Shown here: piece by piece, positions 4,080-19,954 of the stretch
How positions within the stretch are numbered: the first letter of the stretch is position 1
Layout of the letters: each line of letters starts with the position of its first letter
From: Clostridia bacterium
GTDB taxonomy: Bacteria > Bacillota > Clostridia > TANB77 > CAG-465
Reading direction: 5' to 3'
Length of the DNA stretch: 64,000 bases
Assembly: GCA_045537895.1 (NCBI GenBank)
Contig: JAZSQI010000022.1
Coordinates: 19,290 to 83,289, forward strand
The notes under the pieces: model-generated
What the model was told of the DNA's origin: nothing
The model's database searches: none
The model's input: the letters and a program-made list of their open reading frames with translations, nothing else
Made by a program: the position numbers and the translations under genes

Positions 4080-4427
4080 ATGAAAATGAATTTTTATGAT
4101 AAAGTACATGAATTAGTTAGATGTTTTAAACAAACAGAGGAGTATAAAACATATATAAATTTAAAAGAAGAAATAAAAAAAGATGCAAAATATTCATCTA
4201 TGTTAAAAGATTTTAAAGAAAAGCAAACAAAGATGCAGATGTCATATATAGAGTCAGGTAGTAAAGATGAAAATGCGCAAAAAGAACTAGAAAATATTTA
4301 TTCGTTACTTATACAAAGTGAGACAGTAAGAAGTTTCTTAGAATCAGAAATTAGATTAAATGTGCTTCTTGCTGATATGCAAAAAATAATAGGAGAAGGT
4401 TTGAAAGATATAGTTGAATTTGAATAA
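4080..4427 (+). CDS. YlbF/YmcA-family (UPF0342-like) regulatory protein
   Basis: 115-aa helical protein whose N-terminus (YDKVHELVRCFKQTEEYKTYINLKEEIKKD) is typical of YlbF-like proteins. Confidence 0.55.
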   Translation: MKMNFYDKVHELVRCFKQTEEYKTYINLKEEIKKDAKYSSMLKDFKEKQTKMQMSYIESGSKDENAQKELENIYSLLIQSETVRSFLESEIRLNVLLADMQKIIGEGLKDIVEFE

Positions 4428-4437
4428 AGAGGTATAA

Positions 4438-5016
4438 ATGAAAGATATTTTACAAAGGAAGCCAGAAAAAATATGTAAAGATATATTAAAAATGCTTGAT
4501 AATGAAAACGTAAATGTAGAAATAGACAATAATAGTAAAAGTAGCTTGTATGTATTTTTAAATAACACAATGTATATATCAAATAAAACAAACGATAAAA
4601 AAAGTATTGATGAGCAAAACAAATCAAAAATTCTTGTTATAGCTCATGAATGTGCACACTCTAATCAAGCTAAATATTTACAAATATTAAATTTTGTGTT
4701 AGCAAATTTAGAAATAATATTGTTTGCTATAGTTTTAATATCAAGCTTATTTCTAAGCAAGAATAGTGTATTATTAAATAGTTACATTATAGTTTCTTTT
4801 CTATCAATTATCATACGTTGGTATTTAGAAATGAATGCTACTATCAATTCTGTAAAGATTACAGCTAGATACATGATTAAAAACAATGTACAAAAAGAGC
4901 CTGTAAAAGATTTGATTGGCTTTTATAAAAGAAAATTATTAAAAACATTACCAATATTTTTGTTATGGCTATTTTTATTTAAAGTGCTGAGATTAGTTTT
5001 AGCCATAGTGATATGA
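4438..5016 (+). CDS. Membrane protein with HExxH zinc-metallopeptidase-like motif
   Basis: VIAHECAHS motif followed by several TM helices. Confidence 0.4.
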   Translation: MKDILQRKPEKICKDILKMLDNENVNVEIDNNSKSSLYVFLNNTMYISNKTNDKKSIDEQNKSKILVIAHECAHSNQAKYLQILNFVLANLEIILFAIVLISSLFLSKNSVLLNSYIIVSFLSIIIRWYLEMNATINSVKITARYMIKNNVQKEPVKDLIGFYKRKLLKTLPIFLLWLFLFKVLRLVLAIVI

Positions 5017-9409: not shown

Positions 9410-9448
9410 GTACTCATAGCTCAATTGGATAGAGCGTTGGACTACGAA
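9410..9448 (+). pseudogene. 5' half of host tRNA-Arg(ACG): acceptor 5' strand, D-arm, anticodon stem 5' strand and loop
   Basis: GTACTCA TA GCTC AATTGGATA GAGC G TTGGA CTACGAA is followed by non-tRNA sequence. It pairs perfectly with the 3' half at 19693-19730. Confidence 0.75.
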
Positions 9449-9495
9449 ACACACTGACGATTCCATAGAAGTGCTAGTATAATTAAGTTATAGAG

Positions 9496-9530
9496 TTTGA
9501 ATTTTGGTGATTCCCCCAAAATTCCCCAAA
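9496..9530 (+). repeat. Left-end copy of the island-terminal direct repeat (TTGAATTTT..ATTCCCCAAAATTCCCCA)
   Basis: Imperfect direct repeat of 19505-19533. The ATTCCCCAAA unit is itself doubled. Confidence 0.6.
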
Positions 9531-9553
9531 TCAAACTTTATTTTAAAAAATAT

Positions 9554-9630
9554 GTAGCTGTAGCTTAACTGGATAGAGCCCTTGGCTACGAACCAAGAGG
9601 TTGCAGGTTCGAGTCCTGTCAGCTACACCA
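9554..9630 (+). tRNA. tRNA-Arg(ACG), island-borne complete copy
   Basis: 77-nt cloverleaf: GTAGCTG/CAGCTAC acceptor, CTTGG/CCAAG anticodon stem, loop CTACGAA, GCAGG-TTCGAGT-CCTGT T-arm, CCA. The stem sequences differ from the split host gene. Confidence 0.9.
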
Positions 9631-9631
9631 T

Positions 9632-9661
9632 CAAGTATATTTAAATATGCTTGATTTTTTT
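9632..9661. terminator. Hairpin terminator shared by the island tRNA and the convergent integrase gene
   Basis: CAAGTATAT-TTAA-ATATGCTTG followed by T8. Confidence 0.55.
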
Positions 9662-10931
9662 ATATGTCTAATTTGTCTAATTCTTGTTTTTTCCTTTCAT
9701 CCGATACATGAATATAATATTTTTTAGTAGTTGCTGGATCAGAATGTCCCATTAGCTTTTTTAATACTACATCAGATACTCCTTTTTCACTGCATAAAGT
9801 AGCAAAACTATGTCTTAAACCATAAGCAGTAATATTATCATCTAAATTATACTTTCTTCTAAATGATGGCATTTTTCTGCTCAAATTATCTGATATATAT
9901 GGCTCTCTTTTTTCATTTAGAAACACATAATCTGATTCTGACCATTTTCCCTTTATTTCTTTTAGCTCTGTCATTCTTTTTTCTTTAAGTTTTTCTAAAA
10001 GTCTTTTTAATCGTGGTCTTATAGGTATAGTTCTGTAACTATCAATAGTTTTTAATTCACTATCCTTACGAATTCTATTTATCACTATTAGATTTTCATC
10101 ATACTCTAATTCTTCTACAAATGAATTTTCAACTTTAATTATTTCATTATAAAAATCTATACTTTTCCATTTTAGACCACAACCTTCTTCTGGTCGCATA
10201 CCTGTTTGTAACAATGTAGCAAGTAATAATACCCATTCTCTTGCATCTTGTTCCATTATATTTAACCATTCTATTTGCTCTTTTTCTGATAAATGTTTAA
10301 TTTCTTTTCTTGACTCTTTTGGAAGTTCAATGTCTTTTATAGGATTTATAGTAATATAGTTTTGCTTTTTTGCATAGTCCATGCAAAACTTCATTACAAG
10401 AAAACAATCTCTTGCACATTTTCTACCAATATTTTTGCTGTCTATATAATCTTGAAACATTTTTCTAGTTATATTAGAAACATCCATTTGACCAAAAACA
10501 GGAACAAGATATGTTTTAATTGGCCTAACATACGATTCTAATGTCTTTGATGCTATTCTTTTGCCAACATCCTTTTGTTTTTCCATTATCCAACCTTTTG
10601 CTATATTAACAAATTTTGTTGTAGTATTTACTTTATCTACTATTTCTTTTTGGAATTCAGTACCTGTATATTCTCTCATACTTACAAGTTTTTCATTACA
10701 TTCTTCTATTATACTCATTTTAGAAATATTATTTTTTCTTCTAGCCTCTATATGAGCATCAATTATAGCTTCTTCTAATTTTTTCCTAGCCTCCTTTTCT
10801 GATATGGAACTATACTTTGATAACCTTAATGTATTATCATCTATAATTATGGTTATTCTTGCCTCATAACCACCTGATTTTTTCCTTATACTGATAGTTC
10901 CTTTTTTAGCTCTTTCTTTTATCTTATTCAT
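9660..10931 (-). CDS. int: Tyrosine-type site-specific integrase
   Basis: C-terminal catalytic signature LRHSFATLC ... LMGHSDPATTKKYYIH, N-terminal SAM-like/arm-binding region, located next to a tRNA. Confidence 0.9.
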   Translation of the reverse strand: MNKIKERAKKGTISIRKKSGGYEARITIIIDDNTLRLSKYSSISEKEARKKLEEAIIDAHIEARRKNNISKMSIIEECNEKLVSMREYTGTEFQKEIVDKVNTTTKFVNIAKGWIMEKQKDVGKRIASKTLESYVRPIKTYLVPVFGQMDVSNITRKMFQDYIDSKNIGRKCARDCFLVMKFCMDYAKKQNYITINPIKDIELPKESRKEIKHLSEKEQIEWLNIMEQDAREWVLLLATLLQTGMRPEEGCGLKWKSIDFYNEIIKVENSFVEELEYDENLIVINRIRKDSELKTIDSYRTIPIRPRLKRLLEKLKEKRMTELKEIKGKWSESDYVFLNEKREPYISDNLSRKMPSFRRKYNLDDNITAYGLRHSFATLCSEKGVSDVVLKKLMGHSDPATTKKYYIHVSDERKKQELDKLDI

Positions 10932-10947
10932 TTTATTTCCTCCTTAC

Positions 10948-11000
10948 AAAAAAGAAGTTATAAAATAATTCAATGACACTATTATTATAACTTCTTTTTT
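10948..11000 (-). promoter_or_regulatory. Perfect 16-bp-stem hairpin between the xis-like gene and int (possible attenuator or terminator)
   Basis: AAAAAAGAAGTTATAA (10948-10963) and TTATAACTTCTTTTTT (10985-11000). On the minus strand it is followed by a T run and then the int RBS. Confidence 0.45.
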
Positions 11001-11023
11001 CTATTAAAGTCTAATAATTATAG

Positions 11024-11209
11024 TTAATAATTGTATTTTCCATAATTATTTGAAATCCATTTTTGTAAATTATTTTTATCAATTATTATTTTCCTTTTAA
11101 ACTTTATACAGGGGAATCCCTCTGTCTTTACAAGTTCTAACATCAGATTTCTTCCAATGCCTAAAAGCTTTCTAGCTTCATCTATACCTATATATTCTTT
11201 TTGTTCCAT
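11024..11209 (-). CDS. xis: Excisionase-type (MerR/HTH_17-like) small DNA-binding protein
   Basis: 61 aa. IDEARKLLGIGRNLMLELVKTEGFPCIKFKRKIIIDKNNLQKWI matches the helix-turn-helix excisionase pattern. Lies directly upstream of int. Confidence 0.65.
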   Translation of the reverse strand: MEQKEYIGIDEARKLLGIGRNLMLELVKTEGFPCIKFKRKIIIDKNNLQKWISNNYGKYNY

Positions 11210-11376
11210 CTATTTACTCCTTAATCTATATGTTTTTTTCTAAGGTATAAGTTGAATTTGAATTATCTTAACATTCACATAGGGATTTGCCCCCTCTCCG
11301 CTTGCAACCGAGCAACTCCTCAGCATCACACTAAGCCAAGTTGAAGTATCATTATTTTGTCTTATACCTATCTATG

Positions 11377-11392
11377 ACACCTATATAGGTGT
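11377..11392. promoter_or_regulatory. Perfect 16-bp palindrome ACACCTATATAGGTGT upstream of xis-int (candidate operator)
   Basis: The sequence is exactly self-complementary and sits in the 400-bp region upstream of xis. Confidence 0.4.
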
Positions 11393-11612
11393 ATTTGTCA
11401 ATGTGCAAGTGAAAGTATCACTACCTTTCACTTACTTAAACTCTTAAAGAATAGATAGTCGGACAAAAATACAAAAAAATTTAATAATTTATTGAAAAAA
11501 CAATTAATAATATTAAAATAGTGTTGGAAATAACAATAAAAAATAAAGAGGTTATCCACATTATCAACAATGTGTAGCCTCTTTATCTACTTTATATATA
11601 CTTCGTATAATA

Positions 11613-12728
11613 TTAATCTGGATATATTTCTCCTTTAATCATTATACTTTCTACTTTTGAGCCATTATTTTTCATACGACTAATTCCCATGTCAGAACCA
11701 CCCACAAAATAAACATAATCATCTATTAAGTCATAGTCGTGTACTCTTTCTGCTATTATTTGTTTTTCATTTTTACCATTTATATCTATTTTATATAGTT
11801 TATTTCCCATATCAGTTTTATAATAAATATAATTGTTTGTCATTTGATATTCTTCTATGTATTCATCTATAATTAATTTTTCATTTTTTCCATCTAAATC
11901 AGTTTTATATAGTTTACCTGACTTTAAGTAGAAAATGCTATCATTATGAACAACCAAATCACTCATATTTCCTGTTTCAATTATTTTACTTTCATTACTG
12001 AAATTTATATCTGAAACATATAATCCTTGTTCGTATACATCTGAGAATACAGAAGAATCAGTTGTACTTATTTTGTTATAATATACTTTATCTTTATACA
12101 TATACATTTCTCCAATACCTTTTATTATTAGGGTATCATCTTTATCTTGATTATATTTATATAAGTTTGCTTCATTATGGCTCTTTGCAGGAAGACCATA
12201 TTCATCCACTTCATCTATAATTTCTACTATGGTATTATAATAAATATCATTATTTATTACACCAAAAAACAATTTAGCTGAGTCTATAATTTTTGTATCA
12301 GAAAATACCGCAGTAGTTTGATTATAATCTTGTTTCTTTAAATCAATAGGGTAAATTGCTTTTTTATTTCCAGAACTAGCCGATACATATAATATATTGT
12401 CTTTTTCAAATTCTATTTTAGGTGTTTGTCTTAATATTTGAGTTTTATTTCCTTTACTGTCTAACCTTATAATTTGATTACCATCACCATAATTTTTATA
12501 ATATACTGCATTACTTCCTTTATATGCAATCCTTGAATTAGTTGAATTTTTTATTCCATTACCAATATACTTATCTATCTTATTAGAATTGCTTTCTGTT
12601 TTGTTACCTACGCTTGTCGTTTTGTCTACTTCTGATGTATTATCTTTCATCAATATCGTTGACACAACAATTCCACTTATAATAACTACTACAAGTATAA
12701 TTATTCCTATTATCACACTTTTTTTCAT
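11613..12728 (-). CDS. Membrane-anchored DUF5050-like beta-propeller repeat protein
   Basis: N-terminal TM anchor, then repeated units of the type IYY.., GKLYKTDLDGKNEKLI and NKLYKIDINGKNEKQI. Confidence 0.5.
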   Translation of the reverse strand: MKKSVIIGIIILVVVIISGIVVSTILMKDNTSEVDKTTSVGNKTESNSNKIDKYIGNGIKNSTNSRIAYKGSNAVYYKNYGDGNQIIRLDSKGNKTQILRQTPKIEFEKDNILYVSASSGNKKAIYPIDLKKQDYNQTTAVFSDTKIIDSAKLFFGVINNDIYYNTIVEIIDEVDEYGLPAKSHNEANLYKYNQDKDDTLIIKGIGEMYMYKDKVYYNKISTTDSSVFSDVYEQGLYVSDINFSNESKIIETGNMSDLVVHNDSIFYLKSGKLYKTDLDGKNEKLIIDEYIEEYQMTNNYIYYKTDMGNKLYKIDINGKNEKQIIAERVHDYDLIDDYVYFVGGSDMGISRMKNNGSKVESIMIKGEIYPD

Positions 12729-12744
12729 ATGTAACCTCCATTAT

Positions 12745-13686
12745 TTATCCTATATTACTATCTATTACAATATTAGCTACTATATCTTCTGCCATTCTTT
12801 TAACAAATGTCAAAGTATTTATTGTATCCTCATATTGTTTTTTATCAATAGCTTTTCCCATATCAAAATTAAATATTGTTTTTTGATGAAATCTTATATA
12901 TAGCTTGTCATTATTTATAGCAATATCAAATCCAATATTATAAATTTTATTTTTCATTTCTAAAAGTTTTTCCATTTTATCAGCTGTTAATATTTGCCTA
13001 GCTATTATTTCATTTGTTGCAGAAACATTAAATATCTCTTCAAATTCTCGCATATCCAGCTCAATTTTATTACTTTTTACTTCATTTCCTGTTATATTGA
13101 TTCTGGCATTAGTATTAAAGGGAAGATTTATTACTCCTACTAATCCACCAAAAAGTTGTTCAGTTCTAGTTTCTAAATGGTCATTATGGTCATAGTAACT
13201 TACTTCGTGATAAGTAAAAACATTTGCCAACTTTAATTTATAACCTTCTGGATTAATTGGTATTTCTGTCAAACCGTGTGAAGAATACTTGTCCCAATCA
13301 TATTCTTCATTATCACTTACTATATTATAGTCTGAATTTTCTATTCCATTTGTAACATCACTACTGGCATCTCCAAAAATCCTTTTTAATAAAGGTGTTA
13401 TTATTTTTTCATTAAGCAAACTTATATAATTTCCATCATCACTTTTATATTGCTTTACTTCTAGTTCATGAACATGCTTAAATAGCAGAATATCCCAGAT
13501 TAAACAAAAAGGGAATAAAGGTAGCGTAATAATTACTAAAATAAATATTAATACTTTTTTTACTGTTAATTTTTTTTCGTTTTTCCTATGTTCCATATAA
13601 ACTTGCATAGGTTCCTCTAAGCTTTTTATATTTTGATTATATATTTCATCAAATATTTCGAAAAAATTATACTCCATTAAATTCAC
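12745..13686 (-). CDS. DUF3137-like membrane protein (usual LemA partner)
   Basis: TM hairpin VLIFILVIITLPLFPFCLIWDILLF followed by a soluble domain. Starts 10 nt after the LemA stop. Confidence 0.45.
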   Translation of the reverse strand: MNLMEYNFFEIFDEIYNQNIKSLEEPMQVYMEHRKNEKKLTVKKVLIFILVIITLPLFPFCLIWDILLFKHVHELEVKQYKSDDGNYISLLNEKIITPLLKRIFGDASSDVTNGIENSDYNIVSDNEEYDWDKYSSHGLTEIPINPEGYKLKLANVFTYHEVSYYDHNDHLETRTEQLFGGLVGVINLPFNTNARINITGNEVKSNKIELDMREFEEIFNVSATNEIIARQILTADKMEKLLEMKNKIYNIGFDIAINNDKLYIRFHQKTIFNFDMGKAIDKKQYEDTINTLTFVKRMAEDIVANIVIDSNIG

Positions 13687-13695
13687 CTCCCACTT

Positions 13696-14403
13696 TTAAA
13701 CATTCACAACATTTCTTTCTTCTGGTTTTGCTTCAAAAAGATTTTGCTCTCTATATCCAAATATATTAGCTACTATGGAATTAGGGAATTTTTTAATTAG
13801 TATATTATATTCTGTAACTTGCATATTATATGTTCTTCTAGCTGCTTGAATTTGATTCTCCATTCTAGCCAGTTGTTTTTGTAAGTCTAAGAAATTTTCG
13901 TTTGCTTTTAACTCTGGATATGCCTCAATTCTAGCAATAAGATTGTTATATTCATTATCCAAATCCGATTTAGCAATTACATTTTTTTCGTTAATATCAA
14001 ATTCTGTTCTTAATTTTATTATACTTTCAAGTGTTTCTTTTTCATAATTAGAATATGCTTTTACTGTTTCAACTAGATTTGGTATTAAATCAAATCTTTG
14101 TTTTAAATATACATCAATACTGCTCAAAACATTTTCAAATTTTTCTTTTAACGATACTATTTTATTATACAGTTTTATTATATTAATAATTAATATGATT
14201 ATAACAGTTATAGCCAATATTAATAATTTGCTTCCAACATATTCAAAGAACATCTTGTCGTAGTAAAAATTCAAAAATTCACCATCTGAAAAATCATCTA
14301 ACCTGCTTATCTCTTCCTTATATTGCACATAACCCATAAACACCGAGTAAACTACCATCAAAACAAGTGCCCATACTATAACCGAACCTACACTTTTATT
14401 CAT
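13696..14403 (-). CDS. lemA: LemA family protein (island copy, with N-terminal extension)
   Basis: [44 protein letters not shown] and FPNSIVANIFGY motifs. Has two N-terminal TM segments, whereas the core paralogue has one. Confidence 0.85.
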   Translation of the reverse strand: MNKSVGSVIVWALVLMVVYSVFMGYVQYKEEISRLDDFSDGEFLNFYYDKMFFEYVGSKLLILAITVIIILIINIIKLYNKIVSLKEKFENVLSSIDVYLKQRFDLIPNLVETVKAYSNYEKETLESIIKLRTEFDINEKNVIAKSDLDNEYNNLIARIEAYPELKANENFLDLQKQLARMENQIQAARRTYNMQVTEYNILIKKFPNSIVANIFGYREQNLFEAKPEERNVVNV

Positions 14404-14515
14404 ATTTCACCTCCACTTACAATATTAAAAAAATTCTATCACAAACATATGGGTAATGCAAGTATCTTATTTGTAAAATACTTATAAGATAAAATAGCAA
14501 AAGGGAGTGAATATA

Positions 14516-14740
14516 ATGATTAAATTCAATATACCAAATTTACTTAAAAGAAAAAACAAATCTAAATATTGGCTATGCCAAAAAATGAATATTACTTCTA
14601 GAAATATAAATAGATTAATACGTGGAGATACAACTTCTATATCCTTTAAGTATTTAGAACAATTTTGTTATTATCTTGATTGTACTCCTGAAGAACTTAT
14701 AACAATAGAATTTGAACCTGAAACTTATGATAATAATTAA
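14516..14740 (+). CDS. XRE/Cro-type helix-turn-helix regulator, divergent from the LemA operon
   Basis: ATG at 14516 lies 9 nt after AAGGGAG. SKYWLCQKMNITSRNINRLIRGDTTSISFKYLEQFCYYLDCTPEELI is HTH_26-like. Hairpin terminator at 14741-14783. Confidence 0.6.
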   Translation: MIKFNIPNLLKRKNKSKYWLCQKMNITSRNINRLIRGDTTSISFKYLEQFCYYLDCTPEELITIEFEPETYDNN

Positions 14741-14856
14741 AAACACATTAACTAGTTTTGATGATACTATTAATGTGTTTTTATTTTAAAATTATTATTT
14801 ATTTTGATATTTAAATTCACTATTTTTACTTCCTTTTATTTCGTAGAGCAAGAATA

Positions 14857-14944
14857 GTTGTCAGACAGACAACCTTTAACAGCTTGAAAGCAGAGCTTCC
14901 AACAGGTATGACACACATATTTTTGTCTGCTATTTGTCAGACAA
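14857..14944. promoter_or_regulatory. Cluster of GACA/TGTC-type palindromes in the intergenic region
   Basis: GTTGTC-AGACA-GACAAC (14857-14873), GACA-N10-TGTC (14910-14927), TTGTC-A-GACAA (14934-14944). Confidence 0.35.
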
Positions 14945-15023
14945 GTTATTAAAGTAATTTTCTAATAAAATATCTAGTAATTCAAAAAATTCATAATCAT
15001 TATTAAATCTATATTTGTATTTT

Positions 15024-15490
15024 TTATATATTTTTTTTGGATAGCTTTCCTGTGAATTTGTCTTTTGTTTTTCCATTTATTATTTCAAATACATTATCTT
15101 TTGTTATTGTGCCATACACTTCTCTTAATTTTTTTGCTTGTGCCATTGTAAGTTTAATATTTGTTTCTTCAATTATTTCATTTACTATCTCTTGCTCTTC
15201 TTGTTTTAAATATGAAAGTTCTACACCCACCATTACTCCTAATATGTCATTATTTACTTTATGTTTTAAATCAGCAGTTAACTCTGTAAGCCTAATAAAT
15301 CGTTGAATAGTAGCTCTACTATCTTCACTTCATTTGCTAATTTTTCTACTGAATAATCCTCCTGCTCAATTTGAGCAGTTGACTCACAAGTATTGGTATC
15401 ACTAGATTTCTCTTAATTTTCTTTTTTAACTTTTTTAATCAATTCTAGTTGTTTTTTATATGCTAAACCTTTCTCACAAGGCAAAATATT
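15024..15490 (-). pseudogene. ParB-like (mobile-element type) gene remnant: 5'-truncated, with an in-frame stop and a frameshift
   Basis: Hand translation gives ILPCEKGLAYKKQLELIKKVKKEN*..DYSVEKLANEV(frameshift)EDSRATIQRFIRLTELTADLKHKVNNDILGVMVGVELSYLKQEEQ.. The N-terminal ParB nuclease domain is absent. Only the last 69 aa form an ORF. Confidence 0.55.
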
Positions 15491-15518
15491 TTTGTTTATC
15501 TCCCTTATATTATATTTA

Positions 15519-16811
15519 TTACCACCAATCAAAATATGATGTGCTTATATTTAATTCTTTTTCTTTGTCCTCTTTACTTGCTTCGTGGTTTCTTTTTCCA
15601 AGCAATTCGTCCTCAACATCTATGTTAGGATCAAACCAATCTGCTTTTTGAGTTGCCCACTCTATCCAAGCTTTGGTGTCTTCATCTAAATTATTACTTG
15701 ATGAAACAGCCGCTATATAATTTCTAATATCACATGCAATTCTATAGTCTTCTGCTATGTTTAGTAATTTTTTAATATTATTTGCCTCTGTTATTTTTCT
15801 GTTTTTTATTTCTTCTTTTCGTCTTTTTTCTTCTTGGTATATTCTTTCTCTTTCTTCTTGTTCTAACCTTGCAACCTTAATTTGTTCTGATTTTTCATAC
15901 AATTTAATTATTATATCTCGTACTTTTTCTTCTAATTTAATACTGTCTGTTTCTTTTATATAATTTCTATTTCCAAATATTATTTTTAACTTCCCATTAT
16001 AAATATAATCATATTTTCTTATATTGGGTTTATACGCATATCTATTCCACTTCTTTTTATCTTCATACTCTAATAATTGTCTAGCTTCTTCTTTTGTCAA
16101 TTCGTGGTCTACTTGATTTTTTAATTCTTCTATTTCTATCGTAACTATTTCATTACGTATTTGCATTGAAAAATCATTATTCACCTTACCTCCAAGATCT
16201 TCTATTATATAATAAACTAAACTTAAAAGCCTCATAGCTCTTGTTTTTTCAAGTTTTGAAATATTTGAAAAATATCCAGTTTCAACATAATTACGTATAC
16301 TATAATTAGGGTTATAGTAATTGATCTTTCTTTCCTCTCTACGTTCTTCTTGTATTTTGTTTTTATATTCTGAGATTATCTTATGCATTCTTTTATGATT
16401 ATTAATAGATATATTATCAAGTGACTTTATAACTTTTTTTCGTTCATCCTCAGTCAAAAAAACTAACACATTATTTTCTATTTTGTTTGAAATCTTATTA
16501 TCTTCTTTTATAGTGTCTATTTTTTTGTCTGGAATACTTTTTGTTCCCTTCAAACATAACTTAACTTCGTTTGATTCAAAATCAGGCAATTGGATAATCT
16601 CATCACTAACATCTAACCCCATCTTTTTTCTAGTCCAGTAGCCAGATGTAGGATATGGAATATTGTTTTCTTTACAAACTTTAACCAATTTTGAATAGCT
16701 AAGATTATACTTTTTTGAAACGCCCATTAATGATATTTCCCATATTTCATTATAAAGTTGTTCTCTAGTCATTACAAGCAAGTCAATCATTACAAATTTC
16801 TCTCCCTTCAT
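15519..16811 (-). CDS. Hypothetical protein with an HTH-like N-terminus and a long E/K/R-rich coiled coil
   Basis: 430 aa. N-terminus is REQLYNEIWEISLMGVSKKYNLSYSKLVKVCKENNIPYPTSGYWTRKKMG. No catalytic motif recognised. Confidence 0.5.
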   Translation of the reverse strand: MKGEKFVMIDLLVMTREQLYNEIWEISLMGVSKKYNLSYSKLVKVCKENNIPYPTSGYWTRKKMGLDVSDEIIQLPDFESNEVKLCLKGTKSIPDKKIDTIKEDNKISNKIENNVLVFLTEDERKKVIKSLDNISINNHKRMHKIISEYKNKIQEERREERKINYYNPNYSIRNYVETGYFSNISKLEKTRAMRLLSLVYYIIEDLGGKVNNDFSMQIRNEIVTIEIEELKNQVDHELTKEEARQLLEYEDKKKWNRYAYKPNIRKYDYIYNGKLKIIFGNRNYIKETDSIKLEEKVRDIIIKLYEKSEQIKVARLEQEERERIYQEEKRRKEEIKNRKITEANNIKKLLNIAEDYRIACDIRNYIAAVSSSNNLDEDTKAWIEWATQKADWFDPNIDVEDELLGKRNHEASKEDKEKELNISTSYFDWW

Positions 16812-16865
16812 ATTTTTTATCGTTATCCTTATATTTTCCTAGCGAAAATGCATACTCAAATAACT

Positions 16866-17210
16866 CTAAATCTCTTGTTTTGCATTTTCGCTTAATATAA
16901 AAAGCAAATCATTTTTTAATGATTCAAATTCCTTAATAATAGTCCCCAAATTGTTTTCTATATTTTGAACTCGAATCTCTGATATTCTTCCATATTTATA
17001 CGCTATCATTCTTTCAGCTATAATATGATAAGACCAACTTTCGGAATAAAGTTTATCCTTTTCTTCATTATGAATTGCAAAACCAATTGGCAATAAATTG
17101 TTTTTTAATCCCATAGTTACTGCCATTGCAGAAATCCCCAAATAGTCTCCTGCAATTTTACAAGTGATTTTTGACATGTTTCTAATGTCTTCATCTGTAT
17201 ATTTACTCAT
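16866..17210 (-). CDS. Small phage/ICE-type HTH-like protein
   Basis: 114 aa. IAGDYLGISAMAVTMGLKNNLLPIGFAI resembles small DNA-binding proteins of mobile elements. RBS GGGGG upstream. Confidence 0.4.
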   Translation of the reverse strand: MSKYTDEDIRNMSKITCKIAGDYLGISAMAVTMGLKNNLLPIGFAIHNEEKDKLYSESWSYHIIAERMIAYKYGRISEIRVQNIENNLGTIIKEFESLKNDLLFILSENAKQEI

Positions 17211-17302
17211 AAATACCCCCTAGAATAATTAGTCAATTTATTATTGCTAATTTTGTTTATAATATATCATATATTTTTTGTATTATCTACATATTTCATT
17301 TT

Positions 17303-17320
17303 GTATTACACTTGTAATAC
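17303..17320. promoter_or_regulatory. 18-bp palindrome GTATTACA-CT-TGTAATAC upstream of the 114-aa gene (candidate operator)
   Basis: Inverted repeat seen directly. It lies between the SWIM-gene terminator hairpin (about 17369-17410) and the 17210 start. Confidence 0.35.
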
Positions 17321-17416
17321 GATTAGCAAGTTGATAATTTTAAGTAAAAACCTACTTATAAGCAAAACAACAGTATCTCTTATCTAAAATTAGAGTTACT
17401 GTTGTTATTTTTTAAT

Positions 17417-17908
17417 TTATTTTATTATACGAAAAATATTCATATTGTTCATAGTTCTTAAATCTGTATATATATTTTCATTATCTATTGCAATGTCTTT
17501 AATATATTGTTTTAATTGCTCTTCTGAAATATTAGCTAAATACTTTTCTATATCTTTTGTTCTTTTTGCAATTTGTTTTTCAATATCTTTATCTGTAACT
17601 ATATCTTCTAAATTTTGTTCTATGTATATTAGAGTTGCTGCCATATGTTTACAATAGCTCCCAGCTTCTGCATATGGACAATTACAATACATATCTTCAA
17701 TTTCATTATCTTTTATTTCTATTCTTACATTATATGGATAAGTTCCTTCAACAGTGGAATAAAAATTCCCTTTTCTTTTACAAACATCTTGAACTCTATC
17801 TTCGTAAAAATAGTCTAAACCTCTTTCAAAAATCACATCATCAAAAAATTCTAGTGCTGATTCGTGTATACTATTTCTCAATTTAGAATTTGAACTATAT
17901 CTTGGCAT
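17417..17908 (-). CDS. SWIM zinc-finger protein
   Basis: CNCPYAEAGSYCKH (CxCx8CxH). 163 aa. Starts 25 nt after the upstream ATPase stop. Confidence 0.7.
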   Translation of the reverse strand: MPRYSSNSKLRNSIHESALEFFDDVIFERGLDYFYEDRVQDVCKRKGNFYSTVEGTYPYNVRIEIKDNEIEDMYCNCPYAEAGSYCKHMAATLIYIEQNLEDIVTDKDIEKQIAKRTKDIEKYLANISEEQLKQYIKDIAIDNENIYTDLRTMNNMNIFRIIK

Positions 17909-17933
17909 AGTTTTACCTCTCTTAATTATATTC

Positions 17934-19205
17934 TTAAATATATTCTATAGGAACAAAATATTTATTATCTTCTACTGCAAATATTTCATCTATCATGCAA
18001 AGTACAATTCCATCTCCAACTTCTAGTCCAAACTTATCCACAACATCGAAGTTTTTGAAAGCAGTTTTTCCAGGGTTTGCACTTTTCTTTATTTCTACAG
18101 GATAAACTTTATTATCATAAATTATTAATAAGTCTATTTCCTTTGCATTACTATCTCTATAATAATATAGTCTCATTCTAGGACTCATACCATTGTTAGT
18201 AAATGTTTTTATTATCTCACTAACTACATATGTTTCAAATATAGCACCATTGTATGCACTTTTTTCTAATGTTTCAGCATTTAAATAACCTGTTAAATAA
18301 CAAGCAAGACCTGTATCCATAAAATATATCTTTGGTCTTTTAATTGCTTTTTTAACATTATTATTAGAGTAAGATTGTAACATATATATAAGGTTGGTAT
18401 TTTTAAGAATAGATACCCATTCATCAATTGTTTTACTATCTACTCCTACATCTGTTGCTATATCACTTACGTTATATTCTTGAGCAGTTCTTGCAGCAAC
18501 AGAAGATATAAATCTAAAAAATTTATTTTCATCTTTTACATTTATTAGTTGTCTTACATCTCTTTCGATATATGTTCTAATATATGTTTCATAAAATGCT
18601 GATGTTTTTGTCTCATCTATTTTCCCATTTACAACTTCTGGGTAACTACCATTTAATATTCTTTCAAATAATTTCTTAGTAGATAGTTTTTTTACTTTTA
18701 CTTTTTCTTTTAAAGTTTTAACATCAGGAATAAATATTGTTTCTTCTACGCCTTCTAATTCTCGTGTAGAAAAGCCATACAAATCCAGTATTCCCATTCT
18801 TCCTGCAAGTGATTCACTAACATTAGCCATTGTTTGAAATACTTGTGAACCAGTTAAGAAATACATTGTTTCTAATTCTTTACCATTACCAAACATTGAA
18901 TTTTTTCTTGCTTCATCTACTTTTATTTTTATATATGACAATAGCTGGGGAGCATACTGAAACTCATCTATTATTACTGGAGCTTCATATGTTCTTAAAA
19001 ATAATTCTGGATCTTCTATTGCTTGCTGTCTTACTAGCAGATTATCTAATGATACATAATTTATTTTTCTATTAGAACTAACTGCAAAATAATTTAGCAA
19101 TGTTGTTTTTCCAACCTGTCTTGGTCCTGTTACCATTATAACAGGGAACTTTGTTATTAAAGACTGTATACTCTTTTCTATTGTTCTTGCTTTATATTTT
19201 TCCAT
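17934..19205 (-). CDS. AAA_14-type ATPase with C-terminal DUF4143 (PD-(D/E)xK-like) domain
   Basis: Walker A VTGPRQVGKTT, Walker B VIIDEFQ, C-terminal EIDLLIIYDNKVYPVEIKKS nuclease-like motif. Confidence 0.85.
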   Translation of the reverse strand: MEKYKARTIEKSIQSLITKFPVIMVTGPRQVGKTTLLNYFAVSSNRKINYVSLDNLLVRQQAIEDPELFLRTYEAPVIIDEFQYAPQLLSYIKIKVDEARKNSMFGNGKELETMYFLTGSQVFQTMANVSESLAGRMGILDLYGFSTRELEGVEETIFIPDVKTLKEKVKVKKLSTKKLFERILNGSYPEVVNGKIDETKTSAFYETYIRTYIERDVRQLINVKDENKFFRFISSVAARTAQEYNVSDIATDVGVDSKTIDEWVSILKNTNLIYMLQSYSNNNVKKAIKRPKIYFMDTGLACYLTGYLNAETLEKSAYNGAIFETYVVSEIIKTFTNNGMSPRMRLYYYRDSNAKEIDLLIIYDNKVYPVEIKKSANPGKTAFKNFDVVDKFGLEVGDGIVLCMIDEIFAVEDNKYFVPIEYI

Positions 19206-19259
19206 CTTAACACCTCAATATAAGTGTAACACAAAAACAATATTCTGTCTAGTACTTTT

Positions 19260-19294
19260 TAGAGAAATATGGAGTTTAACTCCATATTTCTCTA
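19260..19294. promoter_or_regulatory. 35-bp near-perfect palindrome upstream of the ATPase gene
   Basis: TAGAGAAATATGGAGTT-T-AACTCCATATTTCTCTA. Confidence 0.4.
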
Positions 19295-19380
19295 AATTCT
19301 ACATTTTTTGCAAATTACTACTTTTTAATTTTGATTTTCTATATGTGTACATTTGTATTATTATATATATATTATTATAG

Positions 19381-19450
19381 GGGACATTTTTGTCCCTACC
19401 CTGAGGACATTTTTGTCACCACCCCTAGGGACATTTTTGTCTATACCCCT
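19381..19450 (+). repeat. Three tandem 22-24-bp direct repeats, each containing GACATTTTTGTC
   Basis: GGGACATTTTTGTCCCTACCCT / GAGGACATTTTTGTCACCACCCCT / AGGGACATTTTTGTCTATACCCCT. Confidence 0.7.
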
Positions 19451-19481
19451 ATGTCATTAATATTTTATAACTTCTTTTATC

Positions 19482-19533
19482 AAAATTGGGGAATGACTGT
19501 TTGACTTGAATTTTATTCCCCAAAAATTCCCCA
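19482..19533 (+). repeat. Right-end copies of the island-terminal repeat (one inverted, one direct)
   Basis: AAAATTGGGGAAT (19482-19494, inverted) and CTTGAATTTTATTCCCCAAAAATTCCCCA (19505-19533, direct copy of 9496-9530). Confidence 0.6.
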
Positions 19534-19685
19534 GTTTTTCTAAATTTTATTAACTTTTATCAAACTTTTTTAAATTTTATTAAACTATATTAAATTTTTA
19601 TAAAATGTTTGTAATTCAGTATTTTAAGCATTTGTGTTGATTTTTACCTGTTTTACCATTAAATCAATTTTGCCATTTGGTGCCT

Positions 19686-19730
19686 CTACGAATCCAAAGG
19701 TTGAGGGTTCGACTCCCTCTGGGTGCACCA
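19686..19730 (+). pseudogene. 3' half of host tRNA-Arg(ACG): loop copy, anticodon stem 3' strand, variable loop, T-arm, acceptor 3' strand, CCA
   Basis: CTACGAA TCCAA AGGTT GAGGG TTCGACT CCCTC TGGGTGC A CCA. It complements the 5' half at 9410-9448. Confidence 0.75.
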
Positions 19731-19733
19731 AAG

Positions 19734-19759
19734 GCAAGTAATAGTTACTTGCTTTTTTT
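19734..19759 (+). terminator. Native terminator of the split tRNA-Arg
   Basis: GCAAGTA-ATAG-TACTTGC followed by T7. Confidence 0.55.
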
Positions 19760-19954
19760 GCGCATGAAAACACACATGACTAAAAATGGTAAAAAATACC
19801 TGCATGTCGATTAATGCTCAAAAAAGGCACTTTGTGTCAAAATAAAACTGATAGTTTTGTAAAAACAGCGTATCGTCATTTTATATTTTGCACAAAATAT
19901 AGTAGTATATATATAAACACTCATAGAGTGATAGCTTCTTTGGAGGTAAAATAT

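Follow-up and report, generated by a model that had tools for sequence, protein, structure and literature searches.

A lineage-specific two-gene variant of the candidate defence family PDC-S01 in gut Clostridia

Introduction

The PDC systems are a set of 145 untested "phage defence candidates", drawn from genes that lie embedded in BREX, DISARM and type I restriction–modification (RM) loci (bioRxiv 10.1101/2024.01.29.577857). One of them, PDC-S01, consists of an ATPase fused to a PD-(D/E)xK domain; among the "defence" types of prokaryotes it is reported to rank fourth in frequency, and its matches number about 29,500 in bacteria and 10,000 in archaea (PMC12988326). The DUF4143/COG1373 family to which it corresponds was classed in 2012 as PD-(D/E)XK family no. 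100, with function unknown (PMC3424549), and surveys of bacterial, archaeal and rumen genomes report PDC-S01, which has no demonstrated function, as one of their commonest "defence" assignments. Here, we describe a PDC-S01 gene followed by the gene of a small SWIM zinc-finger protein, in a stretch of 64,000 nucleotides from a Clostridia bacterium (assembly GCA_045537895.1, contig JAZSQI010000022.1, positions 19,290 to 83,289; hereafter, the window). An initial annotation, made from the sequence alone, had described the two genes as a candidate uncharacterised defence or conflict module carried on an integrative island. All together, our data indicate that the locus is not a new system but a two-gene form, restricted to one lineage, of a candidate family that was already known.

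With PADLOC PDC-S01 (COG1373) the locus shares the full-length match to the hidden Markov model (HMM), the Pfam architecture and the fusion of an ATPase to a PD-(D/E)xK domain described in the literature. The difference is that PDC-S01 is by definition a single-gene family; at the present locus, as in three related contexts, it is followed by a probably co-transcribed SWIM gene. Gabija, Septu, the OLD-family systems and the AAA+/nuclease pairs resemble it in coupling a nucleoside triphosphatase (NTPase) to a nuclease and in being compact and horizontally mobile, but beyond PDC-S01 the PADLOC scan showed no sequence relationship to them. In addition, compared with such NTPase-gated nuclease systems, the ATPase and the nuclease are here fused in one chain, with no validated phenotype.

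The locus encodes a PDC-S01 ATPase–nuclease and a SWIM zinc-finger protein

The two open reading frames (ORFs) were assessed through Pfam, PADLOC and the ratio of non-synonymous to synonymous substitution rates (dN/dS). Both lie on the minus strand exactly where the initial annotation had placed them, that is, the 423-amino acid (aa) ATPase–nuclease gene at positions 17934-19205 and the 163-aa SWIM zinc-finger gene at 17417-17908. They are real genes rather than chance ORFs, because their dN/dS values are low and the zinc ligands of the SWIM protein are invariant.

Residues 1-422 of the 423-aa protein align with positions 8-416 of the 422-position PADLOC PDC-S01 profile (PDLC04790; E = 1.8e-108, 361 bits), and six further PDC-S01 sub-models also match. 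As judged from its sequence, the protein is a full-length member of this single-gene candidate family. What had been taken for an uncharacterised system that matched no named one is, as far as the ATPase is concerned, already catalogued. Pfam assigns residues 21-150 to AAA_14 (PF13173; 8.9e-24) and residues 214-375 to DUF4143 (PF13635; 9.3e-45); the DUF4143 part is predicted to consist of a winged helix-turn-helix (wHTH)-like stretch followed by a PD-(D/E)xK-type C-terminus with an E...D...ExK core.

Specifically, the motif check located the codons of Walker A (GPRQVGKTT, residues 27-35) at 19101-19127, those of Walker B (VIIDEFQ, residues 77-83) at 18957-18977 and those of the putative PD-(D/E)xK core (E356-I-D358 ... 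E371-I-K373, residues 356-374) at 18084-18140, all on the minus strand. In the C-terminal part, EIDLL begins at residue 356 and VYPVEIKK at residue 367. The Walker motifs follow the GxxxxGK[ST] and hhhhDE patterns that define a P-loop ATPase by sequence, and the C-terminus displays the succession of an acidic residue, D and (D/E)xK, on consecutive strands, that constitutes the PD-(D/E)xK sequence motif.

Residue conservation was evaluated on a shallow alignment of 50 homologues (71-95% identity). In Walker A, G27, R29, Q30, V31, G32, K33, T34 and T35 are invariant; in Walker B the same holds for I79, D80 and Q83, with E81 and F82 at least 90% conserved. The nuclease-type residues E324, E356, D358, E371 and K373, as well as the SLAGR sequence at residues 132-136, are also invariant. 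The AlphaFold2 (AF2) model of the ATPase, built on 50 sequences of this same identity range, is mediocre, with a predicted local distance difference test (pLDDT) score of 59.6. In this model residues 359-363 and 366-371 form adjacent strands, and the pLDDT drops below 50 at residues 103-145, the region that holds SLAGR. Further PADLOC matches of the protein, to the CARF_PDDEXK and Csx1 nuclease regions, are weak, and NCBIfam returned no informative family.

The SWIM protein is laid out as a beta-rich N-terminal region, a CxCx8CxH finger and a helical tail. The finger, CNCPYAEAGSYCKH (residues 75-88; C75-N-C77-x8-C86-K-H88), has its zinc-binding motif codons at 17645-17686 on the minus strand, and Pfam SWIM (PF04434) is matched with 23.0 bits against a cut-off of 19.6 bits. 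Among 18 homologues (29-85% identity), the four zinc ligands are invariant together with K87, G30, V53, Y59, V61 and L93, and residues 1-19 form a clade-specific N-terminal extension which is conserved in the copies paired with the ATPase. All four motifs quoted in the initial annotation (Walker A, Walker B, EIDLL..VYPVEIKK and CxCx8CxH) are present as given, and its domain calls, namely a P-loop/AAA ATPase, a PD-(D/E)xK-type C-terminus and a SWIM finger, are correct.

An exhaustive HMMER search with the SWIM protein, carried out on 1.84 billion representatives, led to the identification of 3,775 relatives at E <= 1e-3. The top ones are mostly 540-590 aa long, with the match confined to the first ~140 residues, and according to Pfam these long relatives contain SWIM alone, apart from a few combining SWIM + SNF2_assoc + SNF2 or SWIM + LRR. 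When compared with PADLOC PDC-S62, the 163-aa protein matches profile positions 19-139 of 566 (E = 7.2e-14), not the larger part of the profile that membership of this family would entail; also for the ~550-aa relatives, the part in common with PDC-S62 is mostly the N-terminal module only. Since the match is limited to the N-terminal module, the 163-aa protein is best classified not as a PDC-S62 member but as a stand-alone version of this N-terminal SWIM module, which is widespread. It aligns to that module in both PDC-S62 and the ~550-aa family, but is devoid of their ~400-aa C-terminal part.

Weak but specific SWIM matches extend to DpdE (8.1e-5) and to the N-terminus of an Snf2-family helicase (NF053675), and one relative (P0254) carries SWIM + SNF2_assoc + SNF2. 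In these proteins there is a precedent for the cooperation of a SWIM module and an NTPase motor. In contrast to them, the SWIM module described here is a separate polypeptide, and its NTPase neighbour is not a helicase but a P-loop protein of the AAA_14 type that carries a nuclease of its own.

Regarding phage data, no relatives of the ATPase were found in PHROGs or in IMG/VR contigs, and the SWIM protein gave no PHROG; its matches amounted to three weak ones among 50,697 phage records, plus two in IMG/VR. Neither gene is typical of phages in PHROGs, phage GenBank or IMG/VR, and a phage-derived anti-defence role for SWIM was dropped.

As a separate observation, a 172-aa stand-alone SWIM homologue (41% identity) is encoded at positions 4218-4736 of another locus (L096), within a DNA methyltransferase cluster that also includes a PDDEXK_11 protein. 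This suggests that small SWIM proteins also travel with DNA-modification cassettes.

The two genes are probably co-transcribed and lie downstream of a conserved palindrome

The sequence between the two genes is a 25-nt spacer, GAATATAATTAAGAGAGGTAAAACT (17909-17933, minus strand), which includes an AGAGG Shine–Dalgarno sequence for SWIM and is too short to accommodate a promoter or a terminator. Downstream of SWIM, folding of the sequence in comparison to shuffled controls pointed to a candidate intrinsic terminator, composed of a hairpin followed by UUUU (17362-17406, minus strand). The hairpin itself (17366-17406, minus strand) is found 17 nt after the SWIM stop codon and has a folding energy of -19.6 kcal/mol (z -3.98), a stability equalled by 0 of 200 shuffles; it escaped the consensus terminator scan, which made no call at this position, because its loop is long. 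The operon layout given by the initial annotation is borne out, with an exact 25-nt gap and a terminator hairpin after SWIM, and this arrangement indicates that the ATPase and SWIM genes are probably co-transcribed. An Rfam scan of positions 17200-19900 detected nothing at gathering score.

Upstream of the ATPase gene, a consensus match identified a promoter-like site, TAGACA - 17 nt - TACACT with an extended TG (19223-19251, minus strand), although the number of such sites in this region is not above the shuffled expectation. The site is positioned between the ATPase ATG and a perfect palindrome with 19-bp arms, TTTAGAGAAATATGGAGTT A AACTCCATATTTCTCTAAA (19258-19296, no strand assigned), located 52 nt upstream of the ATG.

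Of 89 orthologue loci (from L001-L092), 53 have a palindrome in the 160 nt that precede the ATPase start codon, and most of these palindromes are of the same family and map 9-80 nt from the ATG. Their arms co-vary and keep the two-fold symmetry, as exemplified by TAGAGAAATTTGGAG, TAGATAAATTCGGAA, TATACAAATTCCGA and AGACTTTTTTGGAAT. The mismatches are not dominated by G:T, and therefore an RNA hairpin is not favoured over the operator of a dimeric protein. In addition, the nucleotide homology between the different genomic contexts of the locus begins at 19296-19309, with the palindrome marking its 5' edge. The palindrome is a candidate operator for the ATPase's own wHTH and, being conserved and co-varying, offers a concrete DNA ligand for the characterisation of PDC-S01.

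A ~1.95-kb module is shared by closely related gut Clostridia

By blastn, a module of ~1.95 kb, corresponding to window positions ~17364-19308, shows 88.8-90.1% identity with three other loci (L001, L002 and L087), with unrelated flanks; in the case of L087 the homology of the two-gene module stops at 17364. The module, which has the order palindrome-promoter-ATPase-SWIM-terminator, is found in at least four genomic contexts, and the comparison of their sequences indicates that it moved into them within one young clade of gut Clostridia.

The SWIM partner is present only where the ATPase identity is at least 95%, that is, in the window and in L001, L002 and L087/L088. In L001 (ATPase 99%, SWIM 85%) the genes in the vicinity of the pair encode a helicase, an HSDR_N protein and a Y1 transposase. 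In L002 (ATPase 95%, SWIM 80%; SWIM 25 nt downstream) it is flanked by HTH_36 and a type IV restriction/PbeA-like helicase, and in L087/L088 (GCA_017474105.1, a Clostridia metagenome-assembled genome; ATPase 95%, SWIM 75%; SWIM 24 nt downstream) by a dCMP deaminase on one side and DUF6904/UPF0158 on the other. Helicase or restriction-like neighbours accompany the pair in two of the four contexts. A gap of 24-25 nt separates the two genes in the window, L002 and L087/L088, three of these four contexts; in L001 the 3' end of the ATPase falls in a run of Ns. The L001 ATPase was also considered as a pseudogene, a possibility which was rejected, as its truncation is an XXXX in the translation arising from the N run.

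The dN/dS values are 0.035-0.08 for the ATPase and 0.11-0.24 for SWIM, at comparable dS of up to 0.3-0.7. As measured by these substitution rates, both genes are under purifying selection, functional and co-diverged, with SWIM 3-4 times less constrained.

Proposed function of the locus and alternative explanations

We tentatively read the locus as a co-transcribed two-gene variant of PDC-S01, in which an NTPase-gated nuclease is assisted by a SWIM accessory subunit, a reading whose chances we place a little short of even. According to it, the ATPase would bind DNA via its wHTH, and by binding or hydrolysing ATP would permit its nuclease domain to act on DNA that is foreign or aberrant, with the upstream palindrome possibly acting as autoregulatory operator of the ATPase. 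SWIM, as a putative detached copy of the module with which SNF2 helicases, DpdE and PDC-S62-like proteins begin, would represent, by analogy with the SNF2/DpdE motors, an accessory DNA- or partner-binding subunit tuning the targeting or the activation of the nuclease. An anti-phage or anti-plasmid activity of the locus is plausible, as for the family as a whole.

Several observations weigh against this reading, and the first ones concern how far the pairing is conserved. In 80 loci with species-representative ATPase orthologues (56-90% identity), phmmer found no SWIM homologue within +/-5 kb, and none of these 80 loci contains an ORF with a CxCx6-25CxH motif downstream of the ATPase. The closer orthologues gave a comparable result: SWIM is missing from L089 (ATPase identity 89%), where SpoIID comes next, and from L091/L092 (93%), where a terminator and a tRNA come next. 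In total, 82 further orthologue loci (56-93% identity) lack SWIM. The genes downstream of the solo orthologues encode SpoIID, a metallo-beta-lactamase, a U32 peptidase, Hsp33, HipA_C, a serine recombinase and others; these neighbours are varied housekeeping genes (SpoIID, Hsp33, U32 peptidase), not defence islands.

The same picture emerges from the side of SWIM, as no AAA_14/DUF4143 neighbour was detected beside its relatives at 67% identity or less. These comprise L103 (67%), L104-L106 (56%), L097-L102 (42-47%; checked by phmmer with the window ATPase only, with limited sensitivity for very distant PDC-S01 subfamilies), L096 (41%, in a methylase cluster), L003-L006 (38%, beside an rve fragment) and L093-L095 (35%). 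A metagenome scan with the SWIM protein returned distant ~558-aa relatives only and no further copies of the pair. Since the pairing is absent both from the 82 orthologue loci and from the distant SWIM relatives, SWIM is not needed for ATPase function in general. The linkage of the two genes across genomes, on which the initial annotation had made its proposal depend, does not hold at the level of the family, and from the distribution of its homologues SWIM appears to be a recent add-on in a few closely related gut Clostridia rather than part of a conserved two-gene system. The locus is, in this respect, a caution against taking adjacent genes on or near islands for a conserved system. It also supplies near-isogenic forms of the ATPase with and without SWIM, and a natural variant with a just-acquired accessory SWIM subunit.

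Independently of SWIM, some ATPase orthologues that form a Bacilli/Tenericutes subgroup (65-66% identity) have another gene ~24 nt downstream, which encodes a 391-aa protein of the metallo-beta-lactamase fold (L023-L027, L029; also L026, L031). This gene may be another lineage-specific partner of the ATPase.

Structural comparisons and a published assay likewise count against a SWIM-assisted nuclease acting in defence. A Foldseek search of the low-confidence ATPase model against the PDB gave no significant match: the best ones on the PD-(D/E)xK side, Nt.BspD6I, Can2 and VC1899, have E >= 0.043 and TM <= 0.19, and the AAA+ matches RFC, FtsH and ORC, at E >= 0.087, are non-significant. Sequence and profile searches of the PDB with both proteins retrieved chance-level P-loop matches only, and the single-sequence AF2 model of the SWIM protein (pLDDT 40.0) is unusable. 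With such poor models and no significant Foldseek match, the nuclease fold of the ATPase C-terminus is putative, and so is any contact between ATPase and SWIM. Moreover, a PDC-S01 representative conferred no protection against T7, T5 or T4 in E. coli B, being among the four of eight candidates found non-protective in this assay (bioRxiv 10.1101/2024.09.26.614923). For the whole PDC-S01 family, an anti-phage or anti-plasmid role is plausible but unproven. The defence or conflict module put forward by the initial annotation stands as a reasonable lead; it is attached to an unvalidated family, one representative of which proved negative against the three phages.

Among the alternatives, the one that survives best, doubtful as it is, regards SWIM as functionally independent, that is, as a small, promiscuously mobile gene that landed downstream of a solo PDC-S01 in a recent ancestor and is carried along each time the segment of ~2 kb recombines into a new site. 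This would fit with two families that are otherwise unlinked (SWIM in 0 of the 82 other ATPase orthologue loci), with SWIM relatives of 35-67% identity in contexts that have nothing in common (by an rve fragment, among clustered methylases, downstream of a Cys-rich 225-aa gene, or with SWIM standing alone), and with a non-synonymous evolution of SWIM 3-4 times faster than that of the ATPase. However, a mere passenger would hardly be expected to keep, in three of the four contexts, a 24-25 nt spacing with a Shine–Dalgarno sequence and no promoter or terminator, nor to show the purifying selection seen in SWIM (dN/dS 0.11-0.24) although dS amounts to 0.3-0.7, nor to conserve in its paired copies the N-terminal extension (residues 1-19).

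Less probable still, and in our opinion unlikely, is that the locus has no part in immunity, PDC-S01 being either a selfish, homing-like gene that spreads by means of its nuclease or an autoregulated housekeeping gene of DNA maintenance, which has received its defence label by association; SWIM would be accessory to this activity. Two points speak against this possibility, namely that members of the family have been detected inside BREX, DISARM or type I RM loci (bioRxiv 10.1101/2024.01.29.577857) and that no terminal repeats or target duplications were seen. Nevertheless, a non-immune function would be consistent with orthologues that are single and placed between housekeeping genes, with an inter-context homology sharply bounded from the upstream palindrome to the stop codon, and with the strongly conserved palindrome, with its co-varying arms, that accompanies the gene. 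The extreme abundance of PDC-S01, the negative outcome of the sole published phage test and the lack of PHROGs relatives for either protein, and of IMG/VR relatives for the ATPase, point in the same direction.

It is similarly improbable, in our estimate, that the palindrome is the cognate site of the wHTH-nuclease, in such a way that PDC-S01 would be self-recognising, autoregulated and possibly self-mobilising, and that SWIM is at the same time a newly recruited specificity or sensor subunit. If this were true, the half-site of each lineage would co-evolve with its PDC-S01 protein, and the SWIM add-on would represent the birth of a two-component system from a very abundant uncharacterised candidate family. 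Finally, a toxin–antitoxin-like arrangement, in which SWIM would inhibit or regulate a potentially self-toxic ATPase–nuclease until a trigger, is the least likely of all: a small, faster-evolving downstream partner co-transcribed with a nuclease in a compact mobile module would suit it, but more than 80 close orthologues (56-93% identity) are without the partner, which means that the nuclease does not require an antidote as such, and to our knowledge SWIM domains are not known antitoxins.

Genomic surroundings of the pair

In the window, a tRNA-Arg(ACG) gene (9554-9630) is followed by a tyrosine integrase gene (9660-10931, minus strand) and then, up to position 17210, by genes for DUF5050, DUF3137, LemA and proteins of unknown nature of 69, 430 and 114 aa, in a minus-strand run reaching the pair. 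A Cro/C1-type helix-turn-helix (HTH_26) gene maps to the plus strand at 14507-14740, and the 114-aa protein of the integrase block matches phrog_6058. The PADLOC check proposed by the initial annotation, positive for the ATPase as PDC-S01, matched no model for five other proteins of the island (371, 313, 235, 430 and 114 aa). The region 9554-17210 has the appearance of an integrative element, and no defence genes can be recognised in it.

The carriage of the pair on this island, assumed by the initial annotation, is doubtful. Our search found no attR copy of the tRNA-Arg 3' end, nor a direct repeat, on the far side, and gave no right boundary for the island. Moreover, L091, in the orientation of the window, shows a tRNA-Arg-like 3' end, the ATPase (minus strand) and HTH_3-Gate-Gate (plus strand), with no integrase block and no SWIM. 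L091/L092 are contig ends that can be aligned to the window as far as 8 nt beyond the stop codon of the ATPase (window 17926) and no further, and therefore both SWIM and the integrase block are absent from an otherwise syntenic site. In both, a terminator directly follows the ATPase, and then comes the reverse-oriented 3' end of a tRNA close to the tRNA-Arg of the window. In L087 the pair is near a tRNA-Arg-like sequence and HTH_3-Gate-Gate, in an arrangement that differs from that of the window. The ATPase module lies in a variable hotspot beside tRNA-Arg and is not demonstrably cargo of the integrase element, because L091 has the ATPase by a tRNA-Arg-like gene without the island or SWIM.

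On the other side of the pair, positions 19686-19732 of the window correspond to a 47-nt 3' half of a tRNA-Arg(ACG), from the anticodon loop to CCA, followed by a terminator-like hairpin at ~19733-19760. Its acceptor stem is not the one of the intact tRNA-Arg (9554-9630). This fragment is also found in L001 (6597-6643), 98% identical and downstream of SWIM; in the same locus the tRNA-Arg region of the window (9442-9699) is joined to 19692, which amounts to a circular permutation of the window order. The fragment may be what is left of the att site of a small element that circularises.

Between the ATPase promoter region and the tRNA fragment, three tandem repeats of ~23-24 nt (GGGACATTTTTGTCCCTACCC...) occupy positions 19381-19458. 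They resemble iterons or arm-type sites, and the region is also present in L001. In addition, a 19-nt motif, ATTCCCC(C/A)AAAATTCCCCA, occurs at both 9509-9527 and 19514-19532, upstream of the intact tRNA-Arg and of the fragment, respectively.

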